DNA of 64,000 nucleotides from a virus (Duplodnaviria; Caudoviricetes), in the IMG/VR virus record IMGVR_UViG_3300033463_000095, positions 8,017 through 72,016 of that record; one strand, 5' to 3'. The notes under the pieces are model-generated. The model was given only the letters and a program-made list of their open reading frames with translations, did not search any database and was not told the origin of the DNA. This document shows, piece by piece, positions 1,293 to 64,000 of the stretch. How positions within the stretch are numbered: position 1 is the first letter of the stretch; every line of letters begins with the position of its first letter. Made by a program: the position numbers and the translations under genes.

Positions 1293-1334
1293 GGGCAAAG
1301 TTAAAATATTTTATTTAATTAATATTAATATAAA
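1293..1334 (+). promoter_or_regulatory. Phage-specific promoter motif GGGCAAA-N29-TATAAA
   Basis: GGGCAAA 1293-1299, exactly 29 nt, then TATAAA 1329-1334. Same spacing at six other sites. Confidence 0.65.
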
Positions 1335-1376
1335 TATAGAAATATTTTAATGATATACAATTTATAAGGAGGAAAA

Positions 1377-1745
1377 ATGAGAGCTAGTAGAGGAGAAATA
1401 AAGATTGAAGAAGTTCTTCGAAATGCCGGAATGATTTTTGAACAAGAATATTCTTTTCCAGACTTGGTTAGCTCAAGTGGACACCCTTTAAGATTTGATT
1501 TTGCAGTATTTGACGATGAATATCATTTAATGTTTTTAATTGAATATCAAGGAATACAACATTATGAACCTAAAAGTAAATTTGGTGGTTATACTGGTTT
1601 GCGCAAGCAACAATTTCATGATATGCAAAAAAGAGAATATTGTCAAAAACATAATATTATTTTAATTGAAATACCTTATACTGTTGAGGGTAGAATTGAT
1701 TATGATTTTATTATGAATTTGTATTATTCAAAAGGCGGATACTAA
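1377..1745 (+). CDS. PD-(D/E)xK (Vsr/DUF559-like) endonuclease
   Basis: EQEYSF...LRFDFAV...LIEYQGIQHY pattern; AGGAGG RBS. Confidence 0.7.
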   Translation: MRASRGEIKIEEVLRNAGMIFEQEYSFPDLVSSSGHPLRFDFAVFDDEYHLMFLIEYQGIQHYEPKSKFGGYTGLRKQQFHDMQKREYCQKHNIILIEIPYTVEGRIDYDFIMNLYYSKGGY

Positions 1746-1779
1746 TTCATTAAAATAAAAGAAAAGCGAGGTGTCTATC

Positions 1780-3411: not shown

Positions 3412-3420
3412 TAAAAAATC

Positions 3421-3462
3421 GGACAAAATAAGAAAAATGATTAAACACTTTATTTATATAAT
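3421..3462 (+). promoter_or_regulatory. Phage-specific promoter motif GGACAAA-N29-TATAAT
   Basis: GGACAAA 3421-3427, 29 nt, TATAAT 3457-3462, upstream of the head genes. Confidence 0.7.
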
Positions 3463-3497: not shown

Positions 3498-4868
3498 ATG
3501 ATGCATCAATCAATTGCAACTATAGACTCTCCTGAGTTTATCAATCTACAACCTTTAGAGATTAACCCACTAATGAGCAGCTGTGAAATAAAAGTTTTAT
3601 ATCTAGGTGAAAATAGAAACCATAGTTATATAACTAAAGAAGTTGCGACAGAAATGGCAAAAACTCTACGTGGAGCGCCTATTGTTGGATATTACAAAGA
3701 TGAAAAAGAAGATTTTAGAGACCATGGTGAAAAATTAATTATTGATGATGAAGGTATTAAATTTGAGTGTTTAACTAAACCTTATGGTTTCGTAGCTCCA
3801 GATGCCAAAGTATGGTTTCAAAAATTTGAAGATACCGATGAGTTTGGTAACAAGATAAATAGAGAATATCTTATGACCACTGGGTATCTATGGACAGGTC
3901 AATTTGAAGAAGCTAAATTAGCTATTGATGAAGGTCGTCCTCAATCAATGGAGTTAGATGAGCAAACTTTAGATGGACATTGGTCAACAAATAATAATAC
4001 AGGTATGGACTTTTTCATAATAAATGATGCTATCTTTTCAAAATTATGCATTCTTGGAGAAGATGTTGAACCTTGCTTCGAAGGAGCTCGCATTACCGCA
4101 CCAGAAGTAAGTAAAACATTTACAAAAATGGATGATAATTTTAAAAGAACATTATTTACTATGATGCAAGATTTACAATCTGTATTAAAAGGAGGATACA
4201 AAATGGAACTAGAAGATCAAAATGTTGAAACTGAAGTTACTACTGCTATTGAAGAAGAAGTAACTAATGTAGAAGAAGAATCTGTTGAAACTCCTGAAAA
4301 TGAAACTGAAGCTCCTGAGGAAGAAGCTAAAGAAGAACAAGAAGAAGTTGCTGCAGAAGAAACTGATATTTCCATTGAAGCTACTCAAGAAGAAAAAGCA
4401 GAAAATGAAGAAGAATTAATTGACACTGAAGACACAGAAGAAAACGCTAGTGAAGAAAATGTAGAAGAAGATTATGCTTTAATAAAGAGTGAAAATGAAG
4501 AATTAAAAACAAAATTTGCGGAAATGGAAGCAAAATATCAAGAGTTAGTAGCATTTAAAGAAGCTGTAGATAATAAAGAAAAAGACGCTTTAATCGATAG
4601 TTTCTATATGTTATCTGACGAAGATAAAAAGGACGTTATTGAAAATAAATCAAACTATTCTCTAGATGAGATTGAAGCAAAATTATCAGTAATTTGTGTT
4701 AGAAAAAAGGTTAATTTTGATTTAGATAATTCATCAAAAAGTGAAGATAAAGTAGAAACAGAAGATAAAGAAGAAGTTGCTACAACTTATACTTTAGAAG
4801 AAACTGATTCTACTATTGTTCCTGAGTTTATACAAGCTTTAAGAAATAATAGAGATAGTAAAGAATAA
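3498..4868 (+). CDS. Prohead protease/scaffold protein
   Basis: N-terminal domain (GAPIVGYY, GYLWTGQ, SMEL, LCILGEDVEPCFEGA) plus a long acidic coiled-coil C-terminus. Lies between portal and capsid. Confidence 0.75.
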   Translation: MMHQSIATIDSPEFINLQPLEINPLMSSCEIKVLYLGENRNHSYITKEVATEMAKTLRGAPIVGYYKDEKEDFRDHGEKLIIDDEGIKFECLTKPYGFVAPDAKVWFQKFEDTDEFGNKINREYLMTTGYLWTGQFEEAKLAIDEGRPQSMELDEQTLDGHWSTNNNTGMDFFIINDAIFSKLCILGEDVEPCFEGARITAPEVSKTFTKMDDNFKRTLFTMMQDLQSVLKGGYKMELEDQNVETEVTTAIEEEVTNVEEESVETPENETEAPEEEAKEEQEEVAAEETDISIEATQEEKAENEEELIDTEDTEENASEENVEEDYALIKSENEELKTKFAEMEAKYQELVAFKEAVDNKEKDALIDSFYMLSDEDKKDVIENKSNYSLDEIEAKLSVICVRKKVNFDLDNSSKSEDKVETEDKEEVATTYTLEETDSTIVPEFIQALRNNRDSKE

Positions 4869-4892: not shown

Positions 4893-5423
4893 ATGAAAAT
4901 TACAAGAAAAGGTTTTGGTCAAGTTGAACCTAATCATTTATCTGCACAAAGAAATGGACAAATTTATGCTCAATTACCATTAGATAGTGAATACACAGGT
5001 GTTCTTGAAAATGGTCAATTCATGAAATATGATTATGAAAATGGTAAGGTTGGTTTAACTGGAGACATTGATGAATATTTCTTAGTTTATAACGAAGTTA
5101 AAGTTTATGATGAAAGAGATTCTTATAAAGATTTCGCTATGAAAAAAGAAAATTATGTTGGTGGAGAAATTTATCCAAGATTATTCAAAACTAATATTGG
5201 AGATATCTACACAACAAACTGTGTTGGTTTAGCTAACACTGATAAAAATGCTAGTGTTACTTATAATACTGAATTATCTCTTGGAGATAAATTAGAAGTA
5301 GATACTAGTACAGGATATTTAGTAAAAAATAATGGAAGTACTGCAAATATGATTTGGCAAGTTGTAAAAACTTATACTATGCCAGATGGACAAGATGCTG
5401 TAAAAATTCAAAGAATAAAATAG
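4893..5423 (+). CDS. Capsid decoration/minor head protein (putative)
   Basis: 176 aa, strong RBS, directly before the major capsid gene. Confidence 0.55.
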   Translation: MKITRKGFGQVEPNHLSAQRNGQIYAQLPLDSEYTGVLENGQFMKYDYENGKVGLTGDIDEYFLVYNEVKVYDERDSYKDFAMKKENYVGGEIYPRLFKTNIGDIYTTNCVGLANTDKNASVTYNTELSLGDKLEVDTSTGYLVKNNGSTANMIWQVVKTYTMPDGQDAVKIQRIK

Positions 5424-5443
5424 TTTAAGGAGGATTTATAATT

Positions 5444-6490
5444 ATGGAATTTAAAGATTTATCTAAATTAGCAAAACTTGCTAGTACTGTAAAACCTTCT
5501 TCTACTTATTCTTTCGGTGAAGAAACTTACACTGCTAAAGAAATTAATGAAACATTAAGAAAAGAATTAAACAGTATTGCTGGAGCTAATTATCATTTAT
5601 ATGAACAAAACAAACATACAATCTTCGCTTTAATCGAAGAAACAATCGACGATGTTCTTCCTCAAAGAGTTTTAGAAGAATATGGTCAATTTGCTGAAAT
5701 TAAACAAGTTGCTCAAGGTGACAAAGCTATTTTCAGACAAAAAGTAACTGCTGCTTCAAGAAGAAGAGCAAAACAATTCATTACAAAAGTTGGTTTAGCA
5801 GGCGTTTATGAAGTATTTAAATTAGATGGTAAAAGTTATGAATTACCAGTAACTGCATTCGGTGGCGCTGCTCAAATCTCTATCGAAGAATTCTTAGATG
5901 GTAGATTAGATTGGAATGAATTAGTAGAAATCGTTATGGAAGGTTTAGATGAAGCTATTTATTTAGAAATAGAAAAAGCTTTAATCGGAGCTGTTGATGA
6001 ATTAGGAGAATATAATAAATATGCAGGTATCGGATTTAATGAACAAGCTATGGATAGCTTAATTGCTGTAGCTGATAGTTATGGAAGATCTACTATTTAT
6101 TGTACATTCGAATTCGCAGCTACTATGATTCCTAGTGATAGTAGAATGTCTGATGCTATGAAAGATAGAATTTGGAACAATGGTCTTTTAGGAACTTATA
6201 AAGGACATAATGTTATCGTATTAAATCAATCATTAGTAGATGAAACTAATTCTAGAAAAGTTATTGATCCAGCTTATGCATGGATTATCCCAGCTGGAGC
6301 AAATGAAAAACCAGTTAAAATTGCTTTCGAAGGTCAAACATTAGTTGATGATAGAAAGAATGATGATTGGTCTAAAGAAATTCAAGTTTACAAAAAACTT
6401 GGAGTTGGTGCTTTAATTACTAATAATATCTGTGTTTATAGAAATGCAGCATTAACAAAAGATGTAGTAATCCCAGCTAGTTCAATTTAA
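5444..6490 (+). CDS. Major capsid protein
   Basis: 348 aa with strongly biased codons and a strong RBS. Followed by a terminator. Typical position in the head module. Confidence 0.85.
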   Translation: MEFKDLSKLAKLASTVKPSSTYSFGEETYTAKEINETLRKELNSIAGANYHLYEQNKHTIFALIEETIDDVLPQRVLEEYGQFAEIKQVAQGDKAIFRQKVTAASRRRAKQFITKVGLAGVYEVFKLDGKSYELPVTAFGGAAQISIEEFLDGRLDWNELVEIVMEGLDEAIYLEIEKALIGAVDELGEYNKYAGIGFNEQAMDSLIAVADSYGRSTIYCTFEFAATMIPSDSRMSDAMKDRIWNNGLLGTYKGHNVIVLNQSLVDETNSRKVIDPAYAWIIPAGANEKPVKIAFEGQTLVDDRKNDDWSKEIQVYKKLGVGALITNNICVYRNAALTKDVVIPASSI

Positions 6491-6506
6491 TTTTAAAAAT
6501 ATAACT

Positions 6507-6560
6507 TGGGAAGGTTAAAAATTTCTTATAATAGAGATATTTTTACCTTCCCATTTTTTT
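6507..6560 (+). terminator. Intrinsic terminator after the major capsid gene
   Basis: TGGGAAGGT...ACCTTCCCA long hairpin followed by a T run. Confidence 0.75.
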
Positions 6561-6586
6561 ATTAGGAGAGAAAAGGAGTTTTATAT

Positions 6587-9621: not shown

Positions 9622-10353
9622 ATGGATAATGAGTTGTTATATCTATCAGGTAATGATATTCCTTTTACAGAAGCTCAAGTTACTATACATCAACCTACAA
9701 TAAAAGAGATCGCATATATTGGGGAGGAAGCATTCTTTATTGGATGTGAATTAATTAATTTTTCTAAAAATAATTTAACAGAAGAGGACAAATTAAATTT
9801 AGAAGATAAGACAGATTTTGATATATTAATAGCAATACTAAGAGAGCGTAATGCGGTAATGCAAAGAAATAGGAATTGCGTAGAAATGGTTCTAGCATTG
9901 GTTTTTCCTGAATATTCTTTTGATTTTACAAACAAAGAAATTTTATTAAAGAAAAATGATGAAGCTTATTCTATAAATAATAAGAATTTTGAACAATTCA
10001 AAAGTATATTTAATAAAATGTTTGATTATAAAAAGAGTATAGAAGATAGTTATAATCCTGCGGGAGATATGGCGAAAAGAATTGCTAATAAATTGAAAGA
10101 ACGTCATCAAAGATTAGCACAAGAAAAACATGAACAAAAGAAAATTGATGTTTTTGGTAGATACATTTCTATTTTAACTGTAGGAGAGCGTAAAGATATG
10201 AATTCTTTAATGCAATATACAGTATATCAATTAAATGATGAGTTTACTCGTTATGAATTGAAAAATAGTTATGATATTCATTTAAAAGCTCAATTAGCTG
10301 GAGCCAAGGATTTAAAGGAAGCTGAAGACTGAATGAAAGATATTCATTCATAG
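9622..10353 (+). CDS. Hypothetical tail-region protein
   Basis: ORF 9622-10332 extends through TGA (AED-W-MKDIHS) to TAG 10351-10353. Confidence 0.7.
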
Positions 10354-10385: not shown

Positions 10386-11312
10386 ATGAAGTTCGGAGTT
10401 CGTGAGATTACAGACGTAGTTTTTAAAGCTAAAGCTGATACTAAAATCGGATCAACTACATTTAAAGCTGGACAACCAGTATTATATATCGATACAGCTA
10501 AAACTTCTACAGTTGAAGGTGCTGCTACTACTGTATATGCTACAGGTGGTAAAGGTAATACAAGATTAATCGCTTGGGAAGGTGAAAGAACTTTAACATT
10601 TACAGTTGAAGATGCTTTATTATCTCCAATTGGTTTCTCTATTTTATCTGGAGCTGGATTATTTAAAGCTAATGATAAAAATGTTCATGTTCACATGACT
10701 GCTAATGCATATGTAAGTACTAATGGTACTATTGATCTAACTGATTCTTTAGCAGCTAGTGAAAATATTGATGGTACTGCACCAGTATTTGTTATGACAA
10801 CTGAAGCAGATGGTTCATTAAAAGGTGAATTATTAACTGGTTTAACAGTTAATGGAAAAACTATTACAGGAGCTACTAGTGCAGCAGGTAAAACTGTATT
10901 TGTAGATTTCTATGTTGTTAAGAGTGCTGCTAATGTATCTGAATTAACAATTGATGCAGGACATTTTGCAGGAAATTATTATGTTGAAGCTAGTACATTA
11001 GTTAGAAGAGAAGCTGATGGTGTTGATATGCCAACTGAAATTACATTACCAAATGTTAAAATCCAATCTAACTTTACATTCAATATGGCTGCAACAGGAG
11101 ATCCAAGTACATTCTCATTCACAATGGATGCATTCCCTGGATTCACTACTTTCGATAGAACACGTAAAGTATTAATGGTTATGCAAATTGTTGAAGATGC
11201 TACTGCAGGTGCTGAAACTGTAAATTCAGTAATGGGACATCCAGCAGGATTTGAAATTGAAATAACTGAAAACGATTCAACAAATGAATCTGGAGAACCA
11301 GCAAGTATTTAA
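10386..11312 (+). CDS. Major tail tube protein
   Basis: 308 aa, Thr/Ala/Gly-rich beta protein with biased codons and a strong RBS. Followed by a terminator. Confidence 0.75.
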   Translation: MKFGVREITDVVFKAKADTKIGSTTFKAGQPVLYIDTAKTSTVEGAATTVYATGGKGNTRLIAWEGERTLTFTVEDALLSPIGFSILSGAGLFKANDKNVHVHMTANAYVSTNGTIDLTDSLAASENIDGTAPVFVMTTEADGSLKGELLTGLTVNGKTITGATSAAGKTVFVDFYVVKSAANVSELTIDAGHFAGNYYVEASTLVRREADGVDMPTEITLPNVKIQSNFTFNMAATGDPSTFSFTMDAFPGFTTFDRTRKVLMVMQIVEDATAGAETVNSVMGHPAGFEIEITENDSTNESGEPASI

Positions 11313-11372: not shown

Positions 11373-12821
11373 ATGGGTAGTGCAATTGGAAATTATGTGC
11401 ATTTACTTGGAAAAAATTATGAAAAATCTGGAACTTCTATGTATGGTACTGAAGGTGGAATGAGCCTTTCAACAGCGATTGCCGCACAACATGAATTAAT
11501 ACAAAATAAAATTCAAGAATATGAACAAATCAACAATCTTTCTTTATATAGACTACAAAATAAGATAAATAAATTGATTAAATTAATGGGTTCTAATGAA
11601 TCTAGTAATAATAAAGGTTTAAGTGGAGAGCAAGTTAGACAATTTTTAGAGCAAGTTATGAATGAAGAATTTGATAATTTACAAACATTAGATTTTAAAA
11701 CTGGTTCTGTTAAAGAAACTGGTGGTAAAGGAAGTAAAGATAGAGGAATATTTAAAGATCCTAGCAAATATAAAAATTGAAGAAAAGCACTTGTAGCAAG
11801 AGTTAATCAATTAAATAAAATATTACATGATTTAGAACAGCAGGCTAATGAAAATAACGATGGGGTTAAAATGGAAGAATATGGTGTAGCTATTGATAAA
11901 TTATCAACACTTTTAAATGATACTTATCAAAAAACTTGAGAAAGCATATCTCAAACAGGTTTTAGAGTTAGCCAAAAGAAAACTCAAAATCTAATAAAAG
12001 AATTAAATGAATTAATTAAAACCTATGCAGCAATGCCTGCTATTAGTTTGCAAAATGGAACTTTTTTTGAAAATATACTTCAATTAATTCCTCAAATGGC
12101 AAATGATGAGGTTGATAAAGCTATATTTGAAGCTGCAGGAAAAGGACAGGATCAATTAAAAGTAAGTTATAATCAATCTGCTTTTGCTTCACAATTAAAT
12201 GGTCAAAAAAAATTTGATGAAATGATTCAAACAGTTAAAACTTCTCAAGGTAAAATAGATGTAAGTTTTAAATGAGAAGAAAAAGATTTAAATATTTCTG
12301 CAAAAAATTTAGATATTAGTACAAAAGGATATAAGTATATATCTACAGTTACTGATAGTCCTTTAATTTATTTATTGCAAGATGCTAATCCAAGTTTTGT
12401 TAATCATTATTTAAATATATATAGTAATCATATCGATAAAAAAAGTATGAATTCTAATTTAGCAAGTCAAAAAAGTGCTATACAAGATGTCATGAGATTA
12501 ACTCTTGCTTATAAAGGATTAACTGGAGATACTTATGGAAGACATGATTTTAAAACTAATGTATTTATAGTTAATGATTATACGGGTAAAAAAAGTAATA
12601 ATATAAGAGTTATTTCTATTTATACCTTATTAAATAGAATGAATAAAACTAATTCTAGTGATTTGTTTGTAACTAATAATGTTTGAAATATGTATGCTAA
12701 TAAAAAAGTTACTGGTTATCCAAGCACAGCAAAATGAGAAAGAATTGGAAAGATTATCCAAGAAATGCATGATAGAAAAATAAGAACATCTTTCCATAGT
12801 AAATTACTTGACATTCAATAA
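11373..12821 (+). CDS. Hypothetical protein (~482 aa, five TGA=Trp)
   Basis: ORFs 11364-11780, 12033-12275 and 12375-12686 are one frame joined by TGA. Ends TAA 12819-12821. Confidence 0.7.
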
Positions 12822-12836
12822 AAATTTTGATATAAT
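12808..12836 (+). promoter_or_regulatory. Perfect sigma70/sigmaA consensus promoter
   Basis: TTGACA 12808-12813, 17 nt, TATAAT 12831-12836. Confidence 0.85.
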
Positions 12837-12869: not shown

Positions 12870-13403
12870 ATGGAAAAGGTTACTTACGCAAGTTTAAAAT
12901 TAAAAAATAAAATTGAAACTGAAAAATTTGATTTTAATGGTCATCAAATTGAAGTACTACAATATTTGCCTATTGAAGATAAATATAGTTTAATAAATAT
13001 TACTTTACAAAAAGCAAAAGAAGGTAGTATTTACAATCCAGTTAAAATTGACCATTTTTTTCATTTAAATTTAATTTATATGTATAGTAATATTACTTTT
13101 ACAGATAAGCAAAGAGAAGATGAAGCTAAATTATATGATATATTGGTTACTAATGGATTAAGAGATGCTATTATTAGTAAAATACCTGAAAGTGAATATG
13201 AAACATTATTTAGTTTTATGAACGATTTAATGGCAGATACTTTAAATTATAAAAATGGTATTAGTGGAGTTATTTCTGAGTTAGTTAATTCGTTACCAGA
13301 AAGAGCTGAAGAAATGCAAAAAATAGTTGATAATTTTGATAAGAACAAATTTCAAGAAGTAATTAATTTTGCTAAGGCGGCAAATGGTGGAAGAGATATT
13401 TAA
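12870..13403 (+). CDS. Hypothetical protein (tail-chaperone position, own sigmaA promoter)
   Basis: Intact 177-aa ORF with an AAGGAG RBS, directly before the tape measure gene. Confidence 0.7.
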   Translation: MEKVTYASLKLKNKIETEKFDFNGHQIEVLQYLPIEDKYSLINITLQKAKEGSIYNPVKIDHFFHLNLIYMYSNITFTDKQREDEAKLYDILVTNGLRDAIISKIPESEYETLFSFMNDLMADTLNYKNGISGVISELVNSLPERAEEMQKIVDNFDKNKFQEVINFAKAANGGRDI

Positions 13404-13411
13404 TTTAGCAA

Positions 13412-13453
13412 GGTCAAATTAAATTAATTTAAATCCCTTTTTATTGATATATC
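13412..13453 (+). promoter_or_regulatory. Phage-specific promoter motif GGTCAAA-N29-TATATC (weaker -10)
   Basis: GGTCAAA 13412-13418, 29 nt, TATATC. Upstream of the tape measure gene; overlaps a hairpin. Confidence 0.5.
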
Positions 13454-13470
13454 AATAATAAAAGGGATTT
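13431..13470. terminator. Long AT-rich hairpin/possible bidirectional terminator
   Basis: AAATCCCTTTTTATTGATA...ATCAATAATAAAAGGGATTT inverted repeat. Confidence 0.55.
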
Positions 13471-13512
13471 TTTATTTTGTAATAAAAATAAAAAAGGAGG
13501 AAAAGGATTATT

Positions 13513-19500: not shown

Positions 19501-21378
19501 GAATTAAACAGTTTAATTGAAACTTCTATTGAAAATCTAGAAGATAAATATTTAAATGCAATAAATGCTATATTCCAAGATTTAAATAATAAAGTTACTA
19601 GTGGAGCTGGACTTGATTATGTAGAAGAAGAGTGAAATTTAATAAATAAAAATGCAGAACAATACTTAGATAATATTAATAGATTATATGGTATTCAAGC
19701 ATTAGAAAATAAATATTTAGATGCAATTAATGATAATGATAATATTGCCGCACAAAGACAACTTAAGAGAATAATGGATGAAGAACTTAAAGCCCTTCGT
19801 GAAAGAGATAAATTAACAGAATATGATATTGAAAGAGCAAATAAGAAATATGAAATTGCATTAAAACAAATTGCCTTAGAAGAAGCTCAACAAAATAAAA
19901 CACAATTAAGATTAAGAAGAGATACTCAAGGTAATTATAGATATGAATTTATAAGTGACATTGATCAAGTTAATCAATTACAAAACGATTTAGATGATTT
20001 GTATAATTCATTATATAATTTTGATAAAGAAAATTATGCAGATAATTTAAATCAATTATATGATGTATGAAAAGAATTCCAAGATAAAATGGCGGAAGCC
20101 GCACAAATTAATGATCCTCAAGCAAGAGCTGAAAGAGAGTTATTAATACAACAACAATATAGTGATTTAATAAATGGATTAGTTGAACAAAATGAAACTA
20201 TTCGTAGTAATTTATATGATTCTGCTTTTGAAGATTTAGCTAGATTATATGATAAAGATAAAAACAACTTCCTACAAATGACTCAAGCTGAACAAGATGC
20301 AATAATGAATGATTTAATTCCTTATTGAGACGCGGGAGTTCAACATATGGCTGATGTATTTGCAGGCGAAGGTGGATTTATTCCAACTTGTGAAGATGCT
20401 ATTGATGAACTTCATGAGGCTACTAAAGAGTATGAAGATGGATTAAAAGAAGTTGAAAATACTGCTGATATTAGTTTTGATAATATTGGTAATGGTATTG
20501 ATGATGTAATTGATAAAACTCAAGAACTATTAAAAGATAATAATGATTTAATTGATAGTTATAAAGAAGAAATGGATGCTATTGGTGGAGTTGTTAATGA
20601 ATTAGATAATTTAGTTAATAAGTACCAAGAAAGCGCGGACGCCGCTAAGGCAGCGGAGAAGGCAGCTTATGATTATTGAAGTGAACAACAACGTCAAGCA
20701 GCAGAGGCCGCCGCAAGAGATCAAGCTGAAAAAGAACGTAAAGCCGCAGAAGAAGCAGCTAAGAAAGCAGCAGAACAACCTGCTCCAGCACCGGTTGCCG
20801 CAGCTCCAAGTTATAGTAGTGGCGGAGATGGTCAATTAAATATTGGTGATACTGTTACATTTAGTGGAACTTATTATGCTACTTCGTATGGTGAAGGTTC
20901 AAGTGGTTCATTATATTCAGGTGTAGCTCAAGGAGTTATAGTTGATAGAATTAATGGAAATCCATTTGGTGTACATATTCACAGTGCTGATGGTAGATAT
21001 CCTGCATTAGGTTGGGTTAGACGTTCTCAACTATCTGGATATGATACTGGAGGTTATACTGGTGAATGAGGTAATTCTGGTCGTCTAGCTTTATTACATC
21101 AAAAAGAATTAGTATTAAATCAACAAGATACTAGAAATTTATTAAATGCAGTTAATATAATGAGAACAATTACTAATACTATTGGTAGCAAAGTATTAGA
21201 TAGATTAGCTACTATAAGTGCAAATAATGGATTTAATGGTGGAGTTGGTGGAGTATTAGATCAAAATGTTAATATTCAAGCAACATTCCCTAATGTAAGA
21301 GACCATAATGAAATAGAAGAAGCCTTAAATAATTTAGTTAATCGTGCTTCACAATTTGTACAAAACAAAGAGAGATAA
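13513..21378 (+). CDS. Tail tape measure protein (2621 aa, at least 17 in-frame TGA=Trp)
   Basis: Thirteen track ORFs from 13684 to 21378 share one frame separated by TGA. N-terminal TP901-like tape-measure region (LDSSLNDIRIVTG...EQLTAVWNGY...LRTIYARM), long coiled coils, C-terminal GYDTGGYTGE-W...LLHQKELVLN. Confidence 0.9.
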
Positions 21379-21400
21379 ATTTAATTATCTCTCTCTTTTT
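21369..21400 (+). terminator. Intrinsic terminator after the tape measure gene
   Basis: AGAGAGATAA...TTATCTCTCT stem followed by a T run. Confidence 0.75.
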
Positions 21401-21404: not shown

Positions 21405-21446
21405 GGTCTAATTTAAATAAGATAGAATAATAAAAATTCATATAAA
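21405..21446 (+). promoter_or_regulatory. Phage-specific promoter motif GGTCTAA-N29-TATAAA
   Basis: GGTCTAA 21405-21411, 29 nt, TATAAA 21441-21446, directly after a terminator. Confidence 0.6.
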
Positions 21447-32249: not shown

Positions 32250-32259
32250 TTTATAATTG

Positions 32260-32293
32260 GGTAATTTAGGTTAATCTAAGTTACCTTTTTTTT
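32260..32293 (+). terminator. Intrinsic terminator
   Basis: GGTAATTTAG...CTAAGTTACC stem followed by a T run. Confidence 0.7.
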
Positions 32294-32318
32294 ATATTAT
32301 TAAAAAGGAGGAAATATT

Positions 32319-37722: not shown

Positions 37723-37813
37723 TAGGGTAATAATAATTAATTATATTAATTAAAAAATAAAATACATTAAGAGAAAGAGAATTGAATAAAAATATATAAA
37801 AGGAGGAAAATTT

Positions 37814-39240: not shown

Positions 39241-39282
39241 GGTCAAATATTTTTAATCTTCAATCCCTTTTTTTAATATTAT
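39241..39282 (+). promoter_or_regulatory. Phage-specific promoter motif GGTCAAA-N29-TATTAT
   Basis: GGTCAAA 39241-39247, 29 nt, TATTAT (a TATAAT lies 3 nt further on). Confidence 0.55.
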
Positions 39283-43688: not shown

Positions 43689-43730
43689 TGACAAAGTAAG
43701 GAAATGAGTTTTTATAAAAACTTATATAAT
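43689..43730 (+). promoter_or_regulatory. Phage-specific promoter motif TGACAAA-N29-TATAAT with a palindromic operator in the spacer
   Basis: TGACAAA 43689-43695, 29 nt, TATAAT 43725-43730; perfect palindrome AGTTTTTATAAAAACT at 43707-43722. Confidence 0.65.
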
Positions 43731-43769
43731 AATGTAAGGAAATAACAATAGAAAGGAGTATTTAAAATT

Positions 43770-44436: not shown

Positions 44437-44472
44437 AGATATATAAAAATATTTTAGGAAAGGAGAGTTTAT

Positions 44473-45300
44473 ATGTTTAGTTCAAACAATGGTTACAGCT
44501 TAGCTGATATAGCTGCAGCAACTGGCAATAACAACGGAGGTTTCTTTGGAAATGGCTTCGGTGGAGACGGCTGGTGGATTATTATTTTATTCTTATTCGC
44601 ATTTGGTGGATGGGGATTCGGAGGAAACGGTTTCTGAGGAGGAAATGGTGGAATTAACAGCGCTGCCGCACAAGGTGCTTTAACTAGATCTGATTTAAGT
44701 CAAGAATTAGGTTTCTCAGATTTATCTCATACAATGAGAAATGCTAGAGAAGATTTAAGTAGTGATTATCACGATTTAAGCACAAATATTTTACAAGGTG
44801 TTTGTGATTTAAATGGTGTAATTAATGCAGGATTTAATACAACTAATAGTAATTTAAATAACTTAGGTTATCAATTACAATCAGGTATTAATGATGTAAA
44901 TGTTAATGGTATGAGAAATACTTTTGATATTGGTACACAAATTACTGCATTAGGAAATCAAATGGCTAGTTGCTGCTGCGATTCTAGATTCCAAATTGAA
45001 AAAGGTTTTGCAGATACTAATTATAATTTAGCAACTCAAGTAAATGCTATTAGAAATGATATTTGCACTCAAACAAGAGATATTACAGATAATGCAAATG
45101 CTAATACTAGAGCTATTTTAGATTTCTTAACTAATAGTAAATTAGAAGACTTAAGAGATGAAAATCAAGCATTAAAATTTGCTGCATCTCAAGTTGCACA
45201 AAATAATTATTTAGTTGACCAACTTAGACCAAGTCCAATTCCAGCTTATATGGTACAAAATCCATATTGTTGTAATGGATATTATAACACAATGATGTAA
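44473..45300 (+). CDS. Gly-rich membrane-anchored, Cys-rich coiled-coil protein (cassette gene 3)
   Basis: MFSSNNGYSLADIAAATG...GGDGWWIIILFLFAFGGWG...GF-W(TGA)-GG, in frame with ORF 44734-45300 (CCCD, NPYCC). Confidence 0.75.
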
Positions 45301-45328
45301 TTAAAATTTTAAATGGAGGTAATAAAAA

Positions 45329-45754
45329 ATGGCAGAATTTACAGCTGTGGCTCAACAAACTGTTGAACCAAATCAAGTAGTTTTATTTACAGATACCCCA
45401 GTGCGTGGTAGTAACTCCATAATGCATAGAGATGGTAGCGGGTTAGTTAGTTTACGTGGATTAACTTGCTGCCAACCTCGTGCAAGATTTAAAGTATCTT
45501 TTGGAGGAAATATTGCAGTGCCAACTGGTGGAACTGTAGGTCCTATTTCAGTTGCTATTGCAATTGATGGAGAACCTGTTACTAGTACAAAAATGATAGT
45601 AACACCTGCGGCAGTAGAAGAATTTTTCAATGTAAATAGAGATGTTAATATTGATGTTCCTGCAGGATGTTGTGCTCAAATAAGTGTTGAAAACACTAGC
45701 ACAGGAGATATATTAGTAGAAAATGCAAATTTAATTGCAGAAAGGGTGGCATAG
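45329..45754 (+). CDS. BclA-C/C1q-like beta-sandwich protein (cassette gene 4)
   Basis: 141 aa, beta-rich; HRDGSGLVSLRG, FGGNIAVP, DVPAGCC. Fold assignment is by recall only. Confidence 0.55.
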   Translation: MAEFTAVAQQTVEPNQVVLFTDTPVRGSNSIMHRDGSGLVSLRGLTCCQPRARFKVSFGGNIAVPTGGTVGPISVAIAIDGEPVTSTKMIVTPAAVEEFFNVNRDVNIDVPAGCCAQISVENTSTGDILVENANLIAERVA

Positions 45755-45755
45755 T

Positions 45756-46280
45756 ATGGAAAGATTAAAAGCAATGAAAGATAGGTTAATGAGTTGCGTT
45801 GAAAGTCAAATGAATGATTTGTCTAAAACAAATACTCAAGAATTAGGTGAAGTAGTTGACATGATTAAAGACTTAGAAGAAACTATTTATTATTGCACTG
45901 TCGTTGAGGCTATGGAAAATAAGGATAAAGATAAAAATGTTATGTATTATCCTGTTATGTATACTGATGGCGGCAATAGATATTATCCATCTACTAGCCG
46001 TATGTATTATAACGCCTATGACAAAGGTATGCGTGATTATGACAATATTTACCCTAGAAATGTAATGAAAGATTTCCGCGAAGGCAGAAGTGGTGAATAT
46101 AGAAGAACCTATATGGAAACAAAAGAAATGCATCAAGGTAAAGAAAAACAAATGCATGATTTAGAAAAATATCTTCATGAATTAAGTGAAGATGTTATGG
46201 ATATGATTAATGACGCTTCTCAAGAAGAAAAAGAAATTCTTTCTCAAAAATTAAATACTTTAGCAGAAAAAGTTAAATAA
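45756..46280 (+). CDS. Hypothetical protein (cassette gene 5)
   Basis: ELGEVVDMIKDL...GRSGEYRRTYMETKE...LEKYLHELSEDV. Confidence 0.7.
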   Translation: MERLKAMKDRLMSCVESQMNDLSKTNTQELGEVVDMIKDLEETIYYCTVVEAMENKDKDKNVMYYPVMYTDGGNRYYPSTSRMYYNAYDKGMRDYDNIYPRNVMKDFREGRSGEYRRTYMETKEMHQGKEKQMHDLEKYLHELSEDVMDMINDASQEEKEILSQKLNTLAEKVK

Positions 46281-46594
46281 TGTTTGATATAAATGGAATA
46301 TGATGGAAAATAGAGTTTACTAATATGCGAAATCCCGCATTAAGACGCACAGATGGCACTTACGCTCTCGGAGTTTGCGATAATAAAACTAAAACCATAT
46401 ATTTAGCAAGTTGATTAGAAGGAAGTATGCTAAAGAAAGTTCTTACCCATGAGATAGTGCATGCCGCAATGTTCTCCTATAATGTCTATCTTTCTCTTGA
46501 ACAGGAAGAAGTAATTGCGGATATAATCGCTACTTATGGAGAAGAAATAATTAATATTACTAATAAAGTATTTAAAAAGCTACAACATATTTAG
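46280..46594 (+). CDS. Small zincin-like metalloprotease (HExxH), two TGA=Trp
   Basis: MFDINGI-W-WKI...LGVCD...KVLTHEIVHA...EQEE; ends TAG. Missing from the track. Confidence 0.65.
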
Positions 46595-49496: not shown

Positions 49497-49525
49497 ATTA
49501 TATCAAAAAATTCGCACTCAGTCAA
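49497..49525 (-). promoter_or_regulatory. sigmaA-type promoter for the glycosyltransferase/resolvase operon
   Basis: Minus strand TTGACT-17-TATAAT. Confidence 0.75.
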
Positions 49526-53816: not shown

Positions 53817-53845
53817 ATTATACCATTATTTTTAAAATAAGTCAA
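53817..53845 (-). promoter_or_regulatory. sigmaA-type promoter with extended -10, upstream of def
   Basis: Minus strand TTGACT-17-TATAAT with TG at -15/-14. Confidence 0.75.
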
Positions 53846-55918: not shown

Positions 55919-58900
55919 TCCAACTCTCCAATTTTTTAGAATGTTTGTATCTTTGTTCAGTCTCTTGTTGTTTTCCTTTATTAAAAGCAGTTTTATAATC
56001 ACCAGTTAAATATCCTGTAACGCGTCTAAGTTGTTGAATATGCGTACTTCCGCATATTGGACACTTATTATTAAATTCATCAGTATAACCGCAATCTAAG
56101 CAAGTGTCATTAGGTACATTAATTGCAAAATAAGGAATATCTTTATCCATAGCATAATTAACTATTTTTTCAAGAGCATCTAAATTATTTTTAACTCCAC
56201 CATCTAATTCAACATAAGTAATACATCCTGCATTACTATATCCAGTTAATTGACTTTCTATATCTATTTTATCAAATGGACTCATTTCTTTTCATACAGG
56301 AACATGAATACTATTTGTAAAATAATCTCTATCACTTACATTAGGAATAATTCCATATGCTTTTTTAAATTTCTTCATTGAAGTGTAACACATTGTTTCA
56401 GCTGGAGTATAATAAACACCAATATTTAAATGTAAATCTTTTTTAAATTGTGCGCATCTATCTTTAAATAATTGCTCAATTCTTTTAGCGAGCTCCATAC
56501 CTTCAGGTGTAGTATGGTCTGTACCAATTAATATTTGAAGCGTTTCCGCCAAACCAATTTGACCTATAACAAGAGTTCCATGTTTCATGGCAGATTCAAC
56601 TGTTTTTCCATCATAGCCTAACATTATGTTATTTTCATACATAAATTTAGCACTTTCAGGTGATTGACTTATAATTCAATTATATCTTTCTACCAACATA
56701 TCTTTTGCTTCATGAATTTTAGTATCTAATAACTTTATAAATGTTTCAACTACTTGTTCTCTATTATTTTTTCCGGCTGTTAATAATCCAGTCCCAGGAA
56801 TTAATTCAAGTGGTCCTGGGTGTTTTTCAACTGCTTTCATAGCAAGAGTAGGCATTACAATAGTAACAGGACATATATTTCCGCGGCCATCTTTAGTTTG
56901 AGGATTTGTTCCAGGCTCAGCATTAATATCGCTTCCATTATAAGTGCGACATCCCATCGTACTAACGTAGGTCTTAGGATCGTTTATATCGAATCCCGCA
57001 TTAACAGACCAATCTACATTAACATAGTTAGGATATAACCTTTGAGCTGTTGATTTAAGTGCTAATTTAAATAAATCATAGTTAGGGTCTCCAGGTTTAC
57101 GGTTAATGCCTTTCATACATTGGAATATTCCACATGGGAAGATTGGAGTTTTCCTAACTTTGCCAACACCTTCAATAGAACCTTCTAATAATGCCTTTGT
57201 AACCATTCTACCTTCGGGTAAAGTACAAGTTCCATAATTAATAGAAGTAAAAGGTAACTGATTTCCGCTTCTGCTTTGTAATGTATTTCCAAATATTCTA
57301 TAAAGTTCGCTACACTTTATACGTTCTCTTATGAACTGCTATATATTACTATATAGAGTAGACTATATCTTCATCCTTTTTAAGGATGCTCGCCATTTCA
57401 GCTACCAATAGCTTGTAGCTTACGTCTTTCGACTAGTCGTTAGGCTTTTATATATCATCATTTTCATATTTAAAATGAAAACCACCAGTAGTTTTTATCT
57501 TTCCTTTTAAAACTTTACAAATATTTGTTGCATATAAATTTAATTGTCTTGCACATTCTTGTATAGATTCATATTTAATTCCTGTTTCTATACAAATAAT
57601 AGCTTTTTTATCTTTCTTATTAGCAATAATTTTTTGTCTAGTTTCTTCAGAACAAGGATGAGTTATTGACTTAGGTTTTCTTAATTTAGCTTTATGCTCA
57701 TCTGTTAATTTTCTTCCTTTTTGAGCTAAACTAATTTTTCTTTTCTTTTCTTCTGAACATTTCTTTCCTAATCCATTTTTATTACCCTTTAAAGCTTTAG
57801 CAATTTTATCTCTTACTTCTTGGGGTAACTGAGGTGAAGTTCCGCCCTCCATAATATTATATCCAAAATTTCTATTTTGAGTATTATATTTTTTAATTAA
57901 ATTTTTTTCCATTTGACAAGCTTGCTCTTGAGTCAATTGTTTTGCCAATATTAAATGTTCAAAATTATTTCATCCATATTTTTGAATAGCTTGATAAAAA
58001 TGTGGACTAGATTTATAATTATTTCCATTTCTACCCCATCTATTTTCTGGATTTTGTTTTGTAATTCCAACATATTTTTTATTATTGATTTTATTTATAT
58101 GTATATAAACATAATATATGTTTTCTATATTAACACCTCCTTAAAAGATGTTAATGATGATATAATTTAGCACGGTAAGTTGTCCTATAGGGAGTTCCTC
58201 CGTTTAAGCGAGATTCATAATAATATTACTATTATTATGCCCAAATTTCTAGGTTGTGATACATTCCTTGAACAGCTTGCATCAATTCTTTTTCTGTCAT
58301 ATCCATTGCATATTTGTATGCTTTTGAATATTTTTTATATCTTTCATCTTCAATAGACCAATCTAATTGAGGTAAATCATCATCAAATAAATCTAATTCT
58401 TTTCCTTCAATATATTTTAATCCATCTTTAAAATGTTTACAAAAACTCATACGAACATATGGAACCATAGTCCAGTCTAAATGACTTGCACTAACTCCAC
58501 CAAATTGTTGTAAAGATTGTAATTGGAATAATACTGCAACTAATTGAAATGCTGTATTAATAGAACGAGCTGGTCTTACATCTGTTTGTCTTGTATTAAA
58601 ACCTTCTGCTAATAATTTATCAAAAGGAACAGTTAAACAGTTATGCATACCAACTGCATATGCATCTAAATCATGAATATATATTTCATTATTTAAATGA
58701 TTTTCTCTTGCCATTGGTGATACAATATAATTAAGAGCATAATCTTTCATAAGCTCGCTTCTTGCTTCACCCATGCGGCCGCCAAATGAATATTCATCAA
58801 CATTAGCATTTTGATTTTGAACATCACTCGCTTCAATTTTTTCTTTAATATTTTGCATTAATTTACTATTAGCATTTCTTATTTTAGTTCTTTGCTCTCT

Positions 58901-59161
58901 ATAAAGAATATATTCTTTAGCCACATCTTTTCTTTTGGTTGACATTAAACCTTTTTCAACTAAATCTTGAATTTCTTCTATTTCAGGAGTTTCATTTACA
59001 TCTAAATAATACCCCTCAATATAATCTGCAATATTTTCTGCTTTTTCATTTGCATAATCTGTAATTTCGCCATCTACATTTTTAAATGCTGCTAAAATAG
59101 CATTTTTAATTTTAGAAGAATCAAATGGCACAATTCTTCCATCACGTTTTTTTACGTTCAT
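55911..59161 (-). CDS. nrdD: Class III anaerobic ribonucleotide reductase, spliced (exons 59161-58251 and 57288-55911)
   Basis: ATP cone; HDLD, QFGG; spliced junction MYHNL|NTLQSRSGNQLPFTS; MGCRT, GNIC, YFTNSIHVPV-W, C-terminal RRVTGY glycyl-radical loop. Confidence 0.93.
57289..58250 (-). ncRNA. Group I intron in nrdD (962 nt)
   Basis: 5' exon ends in U (CACAACCT); intron ends in G (ATATTTGG); removal restores the frame. R-like AACGACTA and S-like AAGATATAGTCT elements are present. Confidence 0.88.
57448..58128 (-). CDS. Intron-encoded GIY-YIG homing endonuclease with NUMOD3-like repeats (ATA start)
   Basis: YYVYIHINKINNKKYVGIT...AIQKYG-W-NNFEH...E...GYN; GGAGGTG RBS 6 nt before ATA 58128; TGA=Trp. 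Confidence 0.85.
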
Positions 59162-59265
59162 AATTCCTCCTTAATTATTTAAATTATTTTAAAGGATTTT
59201 TAACCTTTATATAAATATAAAAATTTAAATTAATAGATTAATCAGTTTTGTTAAAGGTTAGATTA

Positions 59266-62200
59266 TTAATTATCTAGCCCTTCTCTTTCATGAGTTATTT
59301 TTATATCTCCATTATTAAAAATTTCTTCTATTTTATATAATTGATGAAAACTAGTTTTACTATAAGTTTTTGCTACAAAAGTATCATCTCTGCGGAAACC
59401 AGCAACTAATAATTTTACACCACGAGTAAACCATCCTTTTTCTACAACATGTTTTACATTATCTTCACCTAATTCACTAATTTGTCTATTAAACATAGCA
59501 TAATATTCTTTTGTGAACTTAACATTTACTACTTCTGTTGGAGTTAATAATGTTACGGATGAACGCGTATCATTTTTACCAATTACAGTTCCAGCAATTC
59601 TATATATTTTATAAATAGGAATATCTCTACCATTTCTTTTAAAGAAGCAATCTATTGTTGGGTTAGATGTTAATTCATTAAAATCCACAATTCCATATTT
59701 ATTATTATTTACATGTGCCAATTCATGTTCATGATAATAGAAACATAATGCTTCCATTTCATATGAACTAATATTACCTTGAGCATATTTATCCCAACAC
59801 TCTTTAAATAATATTTTATTAAAATTATTAAGGATTTCCGCTTGATTATTTTTTATCCAATCTCTTGCTTTATCCATAACATCTTGATATATTTTATCCC
59901 ATCTTGTTTGAAGAATACAAGTCAATCCATTGATAACTTCTAACTGGTCTAAATCAAAATGTTTATTATAAAATTCTTCACAAACATTATCAAACACATA
60001 ATATTTGCCAACTTTTTTATTTGCTTTTAAATATTTTGTAAATAAAAATGTATGTTTTTGTAAATCTAATTCTTTAGGAATTAAATCGTGTTGAATTAAA
60101 CCATTAAAGTTTTGTAAAGTTATTCTTTTTTTTGCTTCACATACTTTAGATATATAATATATCATAACTACTTTACGTGCGGAAATGCCTAATTCATCTG
60201 CCCATGATTGCTCTAATTTATCAAATGCTCCCGCTTTAATAAGGCTAAACATTGCACTTTTATTTAATGGACATTTATTCATAAAATCAACTATTCCCGC
60301 ATAAGGTCTATGTTCTATTATTTGTTCTATTGTTGCTCCATTAATATTACTTAATGCTTTCATACCAAATAATATTTCATTATTTTCTTTATCAGGTTTA
60401 AAACTATAACTAGATTTATTAATATCTACTAAACTAACTTTAATACCTCTTAAAGTAATATCACCAATAGCCTTTGCCACTTTACCATAATCAGTCCCAC
60501 GTTCTTTGCGTTCAACATTTCCTTCTTCATCTTCTTCAAATTCATCATCTTCTTCAAGACTTCCACTATTAACAACTAAACATGCAGTATTTCAATAAAT
60601 TGGATTCCAATTAGTTGCAATATACATTGTTTGAAAACCAATAAATGAATATGCTAACGCATGAATTGTAGAGAATGAATACCCCATTTGAGGACCTACA
60701 CCACAAGCCCATACATATTTACCAAGATTTTTACTTGCCGCCTGATCTAATATCTGTTGATGAAGTGCAGGTATTTTACTCATTTGCTTTTTACCTACAA
60801 TTTTACGTGCAGCATTTGCTTCTGCAAGAGTAAAATTACATATATCTTTATCCATTAACATTTTCATTAATTGCTCTTGACTTGGCGGAACTCCATAAGA
60901 ACTTTTAAAATATGGTTCTAATGTTTTTTGTTCTGCTTGAGTTAATCCATATTCACGCATTTCTTTATACCATAATGATATATCATTTTTAAATCTAATA
61001 TATTTTTCCATAGGAGTTTCTTGACCTTTTTCTGCAGTCATAAGTCTCATTAATCCATTTGCATCTGACATTTCTAAAATTGAGGTTGGACGAATTTTCT
61101 TTGCGGCTTGTGAACCTACTTCACTATCAAATTGAAAAATATTTAATACACTATTTTCTTGAAGTGTTTTCCATATTTCTTGATTATCAATAGGTAATAC
61201 ATTAGGATGAAAATATTTATTATAAACTTCTCTTAATGTTAATGTGTTATCTATTTCATTATATTCTTGTAATAATCTAATTGCTTCGCACAATTTATCT
61301 TGAACTTCTGTTACTAAAAAGTCATATTTTGTCATACCGCATGCTTCTGCCATATGTAAATCATATGCTGTGATAATTTCACCTTTTGGGGTTCTCATAA
61401 ATGTACCAAATTCATATGGATCTTCATCGAATAATATTACTCCTGAGGCGTGGCTACTACGTTTATTAACTAATCCTTCAATTCCTCGCATAATATCTAA
61501 TAAACCTGGATAGGTATTAACTTCATTGATAAACATTTTTATAGGTTTTCTACCTTTATCTTCATTTCCATTGACAACATCATCAAGAGGCCATAGAAAT
61601 CCACGTTCACTTGGAATTAATGATGATAAATATTGTGCTGTATCAACATCTATTCCATCTGGATAATCTTCACTACGATAACCGCGGCAAGCGGTTAAGA
61701 TTGTTGATCGAGTTCCTTCTGTACCAAATGTTGCTATTAATGTACAACCTAAATTTTTTCTTGATAAATCATCTATATCTTTATTAAAATTTTGACCACG
61801 TTCTTTTTTTATTTCATTTAATATCTTAGGACGTTTACTCGGACATAGATCTAGATCGATATCCTTTAATGGACTATATCTTTCACAATAGATTACTGAG
61901 AGTATTTTACTTCATCTATTGCTAGAATGCGCTACGGAATAGTGCTTATCTCTACTCCTCTATATTTTAGTCTCTACACTTATATAATTTTTTCAATAAT
62001 ATCCTTTATAAAGAGTTCCTTCTTTGATAGCTCTATCTAATTGAGTATGACCTTTTAAACCAAGAAAAGATAAAACTGCAGTTTTTGCATTGAATATTCT
62101 TATTAAATTATATTTTTCATCATACATTGCAATTTTTTTACCATTAATAGCTTTATCTCCCTTTTTGCCATACATTCCATTTTTTTCTCCAGCTACTTTC

Positions 62201-64000
62201 CCAATGCTATTAATTGACATCTTTAATTTAGATTCTTGGGTATGATGTTTTCCATACATTCCATTCTTTTCTCCTGATACTGCCAGAGACATTTTTTCAC
62301 GATATTCTTTTGTTTTCATGTAAGAAACATCTCTATTTTTTCTTATTTTTTCTTTTGTTTCTTCTGACAAGTGAATTCCATATCTAGGATTTTTTTCTCC
62401 AGCATATTTTTCACTTATTTTTTTAGAATAGGCTATTTTTTGTTCTTCTGTTCAACCTGCGATAGTATTTCCACCATCTCCGCCTTCATGAATATTATAA
62501 AAATCTTCTCTATTAACAGCATTATATTTTTTTATAAACTCTTTTTCTTTTATACTATTTTCTTTTTCATCTTTTGAAATATATAAAATTTCTTTTTTAA
62601 AATTTTCTTTTCCATATTTTTTTATGGCTCTTAATAATAATGTGCCACTTCCCAAATATGAATCATTAAGTTCTCCCTTATGTTTTCCTATATATTTCTT
62701 TCCATTTATTAAATTGGTTGTCATATAAATATAATTCATATTATTTATCTCCTTTCAATATTATATGAAAAATATAACATTGACATGGATCGACTTTGAC
62801 CAAGATTTTTAATTATTTTTAATTATATAAGCACGGTATCACATGCCTTACCATGTATGGTAGCTTGCTCTCTTAGTCAGCTGATTCGTGCATAAAGCCT
62901 TATTTTGCTGATACCGTTAGCCGCTTTTAACGACACCCTTTAGCAAGGTTCACATTCTTTTTTTACAACTAGGCAATATCAACTATAGACTACCTAGTTC
63001 GACTCTCTCTTTGTTAAGGTACCTTCAGAACGGTAGCTCCCATTTAATCGGATCAAGTTGAGTTATTCCTAACAAATAATGATTTAATCCAGAACAACTT
63101 GAACCACGTCCTGCGCCAACGATACTTCCGCACTCCCAAAATAAATCTACATAATGTTGAAGTGTTACTGGATAAGCAAACATATTTGTTCCCAGTTTTT
63201 CACTAATTGTTTTTTTAATATCTGCCTCTTCTTCAAGTCTATCTAAATATTGATGATTTAATTTTCCAATTTCTTCTAATTTATTAGAGCATTCATTTAC
63301 CCAATATCTTTCTATTTTATCATCTGATTCAAACATACTAGATAATATAGGCCATGTATCTCGCGCAAATGCACCTTTATCAATTTTAGGATATTCCTTT
63401 ACTTCTACATGAGGAATAGTTTGTGCGTGTGCTAAACTAAATTTTTCTATTTTATTATATATTTCATAACTATTGCCAAACATTTCATTTATAAAATCAT
63501 CACTAAATTCAGATGCGTATAAATTTTCTTTAATTTCTTCATTATCTTGAAGATATGCAAATTCATAGAATTCATCTACTTCACGTTCTCCAAACTTACT
63601 ATTTAAATATGCTTTATGAACATACCTATCTTCTTTTTTAAGATAGTGAGCATCTGAACCTATAACCATTTTTAATCCAAATGCTTTTGCAATAGCAGGA
63701 AATCTTTTATTAACTAAAACTTGGTCACGACTGCTACCTGGCGCACATTCTATATAAAAATTACCTTCACCAAATACTTGTTTGCACCATAACAAGAAAT
63801 TTACTATATTATTATGTGCGGCTGCCGCTCCTTCTGTATCACCAGTTTTTTCTGCTTTAATTAAATTTAAAGTATTAACACTTAATTCTCCACCTAAGCA
63901 AGCTGTAGTTCCAATTAAACTATTAGGATATTTTTTTAATATTTCTTCTAAATCACTCTTTAAAGTAGGAACTCTTTCAAGACCTCTATCCCAATAACTA
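59266..64000 (-). CDS. dnaE: DNA polymerase III alpha subunit (family C), 5' partial, spliced (exons >64000-62992 and 61863-59266)
   Basis: PHP-domain TACLGGE and SDAHY; GAGRGS; F-W-RYLNKERVELG|DIDLDL; RSSHASG; KYDFL; HALAY; PIY-W-NTACL; C-terminal OB fold. Confidence 0.93.
61960..62739 (-). CDS. Intron-encoded GIY-YIG homing endonuclease with NUMOD3 repeats
   Basis: YIYMTTNLINGKKYIG...YLGSG...KKYGKENF...FYNI; repeated GEKNGMYGK; two TGA=Trp; TAG 61960 lies inside the intron core. Confidence 0.88.
62760..62801 (-). promoter_or_regulatory. Phage-specific promoter motif GGTCAAA-N29-TATAAT inside the dnaE intron
   Basis: Minus strand GGTCAAA 62801-62795, 29 nt, TATAAT 62765-62760, then AAAGGAG RBS and ATG 62739. 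Confidence 0.7.

Follow-up and report, generated by a model that had tools for sequence, protein, structure and literature searches.

Activator-dependent promoters are known from phages Mu and P2 and from the middle genes of T4. Those of Mu (with C and Mor) and of P2/P4 (with Ogr and Delta) have a good −10 element, no functional −35 and a factor site that lies upstream of the −35 region at a fixed phase, and their factors are encoded by the phage and made earlier, from a host-type promoter. In T4 middle promoters (MotA box, sigma-70 −10, AsiA), a phage box takes the place of the −35 beside a retained host-type −10. Late promoters in large Gram-positive phages are, to our knowledge, poorly understood. 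Here, we describe a bipartite element from a 64-kb stretch of DNA (hereafter, the window), which is part of the 72,016-bp virus record IMGVR_UViG_3300033463_000095, with a CheckV completeness of 49%. Namely, an asymmetric box of 7 bp, GGNCAAA or sometimes GGTCTAA, ends 29 nt upstream of a −10-like hexamer at eight places in the window. With the hexamer taken as the −10, these sites combine a conserved upstream site, a fixed distance to the −10 and many copies before late genes, and on these grounds they would belong with the promoters of Mu, P2 and T4 middle genes. The candidate factor, P0001, is a putative DNA-binding protein encoded in the same record.

That said, each of these likenesses comes with a difference. 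The sites of Mu and P2/P4 are dyad-symmetric and bound by dimers, whereas the box studied here is asymmetric: no inverted partner of it is conserved in the aligned sites, so there is no dyad symmetry. In MotA-dependent middle promoters of T4, 11-13 bp separate the −10 from a box with its centre at −30; the present box is set off by 29-31 nt, and its centre would lie near −45 if the hexamer is the −10. The class II sites of MarA/SoxS/Rob also have an asymmetric box in one orientation, at a rigid distance from the −10 and with a weak or absent −35, and are bound by a monomeric helix-turn-helix (HTH) protein; however, the marbox is 20 bp long, overlaps the −35 and lies ~18-19 bp from the −10, whereas here a box of 7 bp (perhaps together with an ATTAA element 4 nt downstream) lies 29 nt away. 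In fact, a distance of 29-31 nt exceeds those of the marbox, the MotA box and the other fixed-spacing cases compared (about 12-22 nt). It is the asymmetric box, the longer distance and the uncharacterised candidate factor that set these sites apart from known activator-dependent promoters.

The motif itself is a real, conserved, oriented, gene-proximal and promoter-like bipartite signal. An earlier note on the window had listed seven intergenic sites with a spacing of exactly 29 nt, and all seven were found where it had placed them and stayed intergenic after re-annotation with TGA read as tryptophan; the terminators it had put in front of 21405, 39241 and 43689 (sites are named here by the first base of the box) are present as well. 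The literal pattern occurs 7 times in the window against 1.31 expected, and the arrangement is not equally frequent in shuffled sequence, the outcome which that note had seen as fatal to its proposal, since none of 100 shuffles reached 7. These seven matches are six of the listed sites plus 9786, which lies within a conserved 243-amino acid gene at 9622-10353; the other listed site, 39241, misses the literal pattern through its hexamer and retains the 29-nt spacing. In other words, at least eight sites exist, one of them intragenic.

Because the pattern had been picked after the fact, we made independent tests. In the window, the distances from GGNCWAA to TATAW form a single spike at 29 nt (6 cases, with a background of ~0.3), and in 22 related portal loci 21 cases fall at 29 nt, with shoulders at 27 and 31. 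Moreover, in 50 related IMG/VR loci fetched via the portal protein and two other proteins, 108 non-redundant intergenic boxes have −10-like hexamers at 29 nt (20 cases) and at 31 nt (19 cases), with ~4-5 at other distances, and the profile for 382 intragenic boxes is flat. The spacing of exactly 29 nt claimed earlier thus holds at all seven listed sites and widens to 29-31 nt in the clade. What is more, a weight matrix whose 32 training sites all came from relatives, and none from the window's genome, returned the eight window sites as the top eight in the whole 72-kb record (17.5-36.5 bits; next match 14.3), and composition-matched shuffles never reached 12 bits; the training loci held no orthologue of 21405, 43689 or 62801(−). 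In controls preserving local composition, the reversed sequence gave 1 match and sliding the second block gave 0-3, compared with 12 in the true register.

The sites also stand in a consistent relation to genes. All 37 non-redundant sites have the orientation of the gene that follows, at a distance of about 35 nt; in 35 cases, the site ends 9-62 nt short of the called gene start. At orthologous places after the portal gene and before the HNH/portal, tape-measure and 39299-homologue genes, the box, the hexamer and the distance between them are kept, although the spacer sequence has changed. In particular, the orthologous site of 1293 is retained in ~20 related loci with diverged spacers; the box and hexamer of 3421 are kept in L003-L007, L009, L011, L012, L019 and other loci; and at the place of 39241 at least 10 relatives have, in succession, a terminator, a T-run, the box, ~29-31 nt and a −10-like element. 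For 43689, the presumed orthologue at position 6566 of L030, judged only from the common downstream sequence, has a standard box at 29 nt. The gene that contains 9786 is full length in 17 relatives, and in L022 the motif is retained despite differing encoded residues; it is possible that 9786 is an internal promoter for 10386-11312.

A complete relative, G001 (131.6 kb with terminal repeats, assembled from the fetched pieces L057-L063), was scanned with a matrix built excluding its own sites and gave 17 matches of at least 12 bits, compared with 0-2 in shuffles, all of them along the local direction of transcription. Three belong to the replication block on the minus strand, and the gene that immediately follows is in each case one for a GIY-YIG endonuclease (Pfam E 2.6e-8 to 2.5e-11); this arrangement mirrors that of 62801(−) in the window, which precedes a gene whose product has GIY-YIG and NUMOD3 domains; 1293 likewise precedes an HNH endonuclease gene. 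The proposed regulon of structural units therefore holds as far as virion genes are concerned, and has to be widened to homing-endonuclease genes inside the replication block. In T4, endonuclease genes, whether intron-borne or free-standing, are served by late or middle promoters that lie within early genes, while hairpins at endonuclease genes silence the read-through transcripts. Endonuclease genes with later-class promoters of their own inside early genes would be the same arrangement as that at the G001 sites and at 62801(−), and it is by this analogy, together with gene content, that we call the class probably late.

When aligned, the sites begin with a T run, followed by the box (G, G, any base, C, A or T, A, A), by an ATTAA-like element 4 nt past the box in many relatives, by a T-tract with TTNA immediately before the hexamer and by a hexamer of the TANAAT type, often with TAG or TAAG 2-3 nt further on. 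The hexamers of the eight window sites agree with a TATAAT-like −10 at 4-6 of 6 positions. No −35 hexamer is found at 16-18 bp, and the sole block conserved further up is the box, whose end is 29 nt away from the hexamer (a spacer of 31 nt when the box is counted as the −35 equivalent); none of the eight sites is among the listed sigma-70-type promoter matches. The early genes of the clade have a consensus −35, a 17-nt spacer and a TG-extended −10 (TGN), whereas the TG extension is missing at box-type sites. The three sigma-A promoters given in the earlier note at 12808, 49525(−) and 53845(−) are present, and its two arguments on the promoter type, namely that the box is too distant from the −10 to serve as a −35 and that the class is distinct from sigma-A promoters, are borne out by the spacing and by the form of the early promoters, respectively. 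Since canonical sigma-A promoters drive other genes, the box-type sites would form a separate promoter class. The perfect sigma-A promoter at 12808-12836 is itself odd in its surroundings, a virion block otherwise served by box-type sites; it precedes 12870-13403, the gene before the tape-measure gene.

Table 1. Box-type sites, weaker candidates, sigma-A promoters and related genes. Positions refer to the window unless another locus is named; bits are those of the relatives-trained matrix.
Feature	Position	Strand	Score	Remark
Box-type site	1293..1334	+	36.5 bits	upstream of HNH endonuclease gene (1377-1745) and portal gene
Box-type site	3421..3462	+	26.9 bits	after portal gene, before 3498-4868 and capsid genes
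Box-type site (eighth)	9786..9827	+	21.4 bits	inside conserved gene 9622-10353
Box-type site	13412..13453	+	21.8 bits	upstream of tape-measure gene; hexamer within terminator hairpin loop (13431-13476)
Box-type site	21405..21446	+	23.9 bits	upstream of gene for 2785-amino acid tail protein, directly past terminator 21369-21394; no orthologue in training set
Box-type site	39241..39282	+	21.0 bits	upstream of gene starting ~39299, past weak terminator; hexamer TATTAT
Box-type site (weakest listed)	43689..43730	+	17.5 bits	box starts with T; upstream of 43770-46594 cassette
Box-type site	62760..62801	−	22.7 bits	in insertion splitting Pol III alpha, upstream of GIY-YIG endonuclease gene 61960-62739; no orthologue in training set
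Weaker candidate	37725..37766	+	14.3 bits	intergenic; upstream of M23-peptidase-like gene
Weaker candidate	32259..32300	+	11.7 bits	variant box; spacer is a terminator hairpin (terminator 32259-32286)
Weaker candidate	59212..59253	−	12.2 bits	intergenic; upstream of first NrdD fragment
Canonical sigma-A promoter	12808..12836	+	12/12 matches	with TG
Canonical sigma-A promoter	49497..49525	−	11/12 matches	with TG
Canonical sigma-A promoter	53817..53845	−	11/12 matches	with TG
Split gene NrdD	57207-58234	−		gene fragments and endonuclease open reading frame
Split gene Pol III alpha	61537-62982	−		gene fragments and endonuclease open reading frame
RpoD-like sigma, 281 amino acids	L055 1901-2746 = G001 122400-123245		E 4e-83 (RpoD C-terminal model)	no TGA codon

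Significant hairpins were found at three sites: 13412, 39241 and 62801(−). At 13412 (energy z = −5.0), the terminator stem covaries in seven relatives and the 29-nt distance from the box to the loop is maintained, while the stem predicted at 39241 and 62801(−) has one arm before the hexamer and the other at the ribosome site further downstream. Transcription begun just past the hexamer would leave out the 5' arm of the hairpin, so that the RNA would run on past the terminator or have its ribosome site free; in RNA reading through from upstream, by contrast, the hairpin would terminate transcription or hide the ribosome site. A general rule that the hexamer lies in a hairpin loop was rejected, as the hairpins are significant at these three sites only. 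In the terminator past the major capsid gene (6491-6586), the loop contains TATAAT but the 29-nt position is without a box; a loop hexamer alone is hence no mark of this promoter class. A different feature was seen at 43689, which is flanked by two copies of a palindromic repeat of 18-20 nt; the region 43669-43743 contains a tandem duplication of ~36 nt, with a 13-nt element after both the box and the hexamer, and the palindromic elements may be paired operators through which another regulator would act on the 43770-46594 cassette.

The earlier note had suggested that a phage-encoded factor be looked for, and a DNA-binding candidate with a consensus sigma-A promoter of its own was found just outside the window. 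Namely, P0001 (364 amino acids) is encoded by the first plus-strand gene of the record, at 5242-6336, which is 1.7 kb upstream of the window (L025) and at the head of the virion block. It has more than 6000 metagenomic relatives at E values up to 0.001. Its fold is predicted with confidence (mean predicted local distance difference test, pLDDT, 88.9): the N-terminal half is helical and includes a long hairpin, an HTH of the sigma-4/LuxR kind follows around residues 250-312, and a CxxC...CxxC zinc ribbon lies at the C-terminus. A search of BFVD returned only unnamed homologues and zinc-ribbon matches, and the nearest Atlas clusters with a Pfam family are of the GerE/LuxR HTH type, while a Sigma70_r4 cluster scores 0.80. 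In 10 of the 15 relatives in which the gene start is on the locus, the leader of the P0001 gene carries the box and an ATTAA-like element 12-15 nt past the sigma-A −10, a pattern usual in autoregulation, and it suggests that a box-binding protein may control its own gene. No description of the motif or of the P0001 family was found in the literature searched.

How does such a candidate compare with the known factors? Ogr and Delta are zinc-finger proteins, and P0001 is predicted to have a zinc ribbon. However, the proteins of Mu and P2/P4 are unrelated to it, small and from phages of Proteobacteria, whereas P0001, with its HTH and zinc ribbon, would act in phages of Bacillota-like hosts; what they share, a phage-encoded factor made from a host-type promoter, is here a matter of the candidate P0001. 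No homologue of MotA, AsiA or gp55 turned up among ~45 proteins scanned against Pfam or PHROGs. In temperate Gram-positive phages, late genes are switched on by an activator of the Ltr superfamily (RinA, ArpU, LtrC), whose gene lies immediately before the packaging genes (PMC3152322). A phage-encoded activator from just in front of the packaging genes, in low-GC Gram-positive hosts, would be common to both cases if P0001 is the factor, but in the Ltr phages a single promoter, upstream of terS, serves the late operon (PMC3152322), whereas here 8-17 dispersed copies occur per genome. What is more, P0001 has no match to any Pfam family, and hence none to a model of the ArpU/Ltr type.

From the observed motif, geometry, conservation, orientation and gene context we infer, with a probability of about 0.66, that the sites are phage-specific, probably late promoters, at which RNA polymerase would act at the −10-like hexamer together with a phage protein that binds the box, the best candidate being P0001. 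The promoter would consist of the hexamer with its preceding T-tract, no usable −35 and the asymmetric box ending 29 nt (29-31 nt in the clade) upstream. The polymerase would read the hexamer through a sigma-A-type region 2, be it of the host sigma-A or of an RpoD-like phage sigma, while the protein on the box, for which P0001 is the candidate, would recruit or stabilise the polymerase, the rigid spacing reflecting a fixed protein-protein contact. A factor site near −45 acting with a −10, as the earlier note had it, is thus the mechanism best supported by geometry, conservation and the presence of a candidate, and its factor would be an activator.

Several observations weigh against this interpretation. 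Enterococcus phage EF1 encodes a 39%-identical homologue of P0001, and yet the box motif is absent from its sequence (L053, L054). The P0001 leader in the window's own genome has no box. The N-terminal half of P0001 has no informative fold match, and by sequence, the Pfam, NCBIfam, PDB and hhalign comparisons linked the protein to no characterised regulator. With the record only 49% complete, the half that is missing could contain the gene for the actual factor. Finally, the training set of the matrix held orthologues of five of the eight window sites, and the conservation of orthologous sites, above all of 13412 and 9786, may partly reflect plain descent and not selection. Several late leaders of EF1 have, for their part, a common CCAAGAG-like element shortly before the ribosome site.

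Could a single alternative sigma factor with an unusually long reach, P0001 or another phage sigma, read both blocks, with the box as a displaced −35 and with no separate activator? We consider this unlikely. The idea draws on the PHROGs label of the P0001 family, 'sigma factor' (phrog_5767, E 1.7e-43), on the likeness of the box to the early −35 plus the two following A's, from which it differs mainly at two positions, and on the weak resemblance of residues 212-312, which include the HTH, to the sigma-H structure 3mzy (Z 6.6, root-mean-square deviation 3.2, 76 residues aligned). However, no Pfam sigma domain, Sigma70_r2 included, was found in any of 68 members of the family, even at E 1; P0001 has no NCBIfam match and no sequence match in the PDB; hhalign gives a probability of 0.1 against the RpoD-like sigma; and residues 1-210 match only generic helical hairpins (Z ~7), with nothing like sigma-2 among the matches, although a region 2 may still be present there. 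The label notwithstanding, P0001 as a proven sigma is therefore unsupported by sequence or fold, and we describe it as a putative DNA-binding protein with an HTH and a zinc ribbon. A genuine RpoD-like sigma of 281-311 amino acids does occur in the complete relatives (G001, G002, G003), where its gene lies elsewhere in the genome than that of P0001. It is absent from the window's record, in which a six-frame search found no Sigma70_r2; as this record covers half a genome (49% complete), the other half may contain a copy. In the holoenzyme, a sigma-70-family protein bridges a spacer of 16-19 bp with its regions 2 and 4, and an RpoD-type sigma therefore cannot alone explain a box 31 nt away; that said, it could read the hexamer.

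It is highly unlikely that the box is a non-promoter element, such as a protein site for another process or a signal at the RNA level, next to which the AT-rich hexamer is incidental. Several boxes do abut the T-runs of terminators, and one site lies inside a gene (9786). However, the rigid spacing to a −10-like hexamer across unconserved spacers, the strict co-orientation with genes, the location of nearly all sites (35 of 37) just before gene starts and the presence of sites before self-contained endonuclease genes within other genes are all predictions of a promoter and are hard to explain otherwise. Still more improbable is a host regulator borrowed by the phage in the way that T1-like phages appear to use MarA/SoxS, Spo0A-like or another monomeric regulator of Bacillota, that binds the box and leaves P0001 with some other role: the box, a short asymmetric 7-mer, is like the 0A box of Spo0A at 5 of 7 positions and the window's P0001 leader lacks it, but its position 5 is A or T at every window site and G in the 0A box, its presence in the P0001 leaders of most relatives examined fits a phage autoregulator better, and the motif appears to track the phage clade, being absent from EF1.

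These putative promoters belong to a phage from the gut or rumen, as yet uncultured, in whose genes TGA stands for tryptophan. Under translation table 11 the region 13.5-32 kb is shattered, whereas with TGA as tryptophan it yields a tape-measure protein of 2621 amino acids, a tail protein of 2785 amino acids and ordinary neighbours; as these two large genes are open in that code only, annotation with table 11 was ruled out, and reading TAG as glutamine brought no improvement. The G+C content of the window is 29%. A crAss-like identity, first suspected from the giant open reading frames and the low G+C content, was ruled out by the siphovirus-like terminase, portal and tape measure and by strong Shine-Dalgarno sites, the ribosome sites of the window being of the GGAGG type. 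The plus strand carries terminase, HNH endonuclease, portal, capsid and tail genes up to ~46.6 kb, and past this point the minus strand carries genes of replication and nucleotide metabolism: those for the alpha subunit of DNA polymerase III (Pol III alpha), NrdD, thymidine kinase, dUTPase and deformylase. The genes for NrdD and Pol III alpha are each interrupted by an insertion with an endonuclease open reading frame (NUMOD/I-HmuI-like and GIY-YIG). Rfam gave no group I intron model around 57000-63200, so that an intron reading of the two split genes draws solely on the gene fragments and the endonuclease frames. With one marker protein, the closest cultured relatives found were phages (134-142 kb) of Enterococcus, Mammaliicoccus, Geobacillus and Brevibacillus, which makes a member of Bacillota the probable host. 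No tRNA genes were found in the record, while the complete relative G001 has 26 in a single block at 100.7-112.2 kb, including Trp-CCA; none of the 26 has the anticodon UCA, though the clade reads TGA as tryptophan, and the host itself may use code 4.

The genetic code also touches the candidate factor. The P0001 gene has six in-frame TGA codons behind its host-type consensus promoter, so full-length P0001 needs TGA to be read as tryptophan. In the further-reaching reading that we would propose only tentatively, and on balance doubt, proteins of the P0001 type would be a new class of phage transcription factors with an undescribed geometry, that is, a monomer-type box 29-31 bp from the −10. 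As P0001 would be transcribed by the host sigma-A and completed only where TGA means tryptophan, the change of code would then be tied to the late programme as a whole and, with it, to when the homing endonucleases are expressed.

The clade to which this phage belongs is abundant in gut and rumen metagenomes. Given a promoter grammar and a named candidate factor, one could annotate transcription units across thousands of uncultured contigs and begin to ask how phages with recoded stop codons time their late genes. Moreover, the pair of promoter and activator would be a compact, orthogonal tool for Bacillota.

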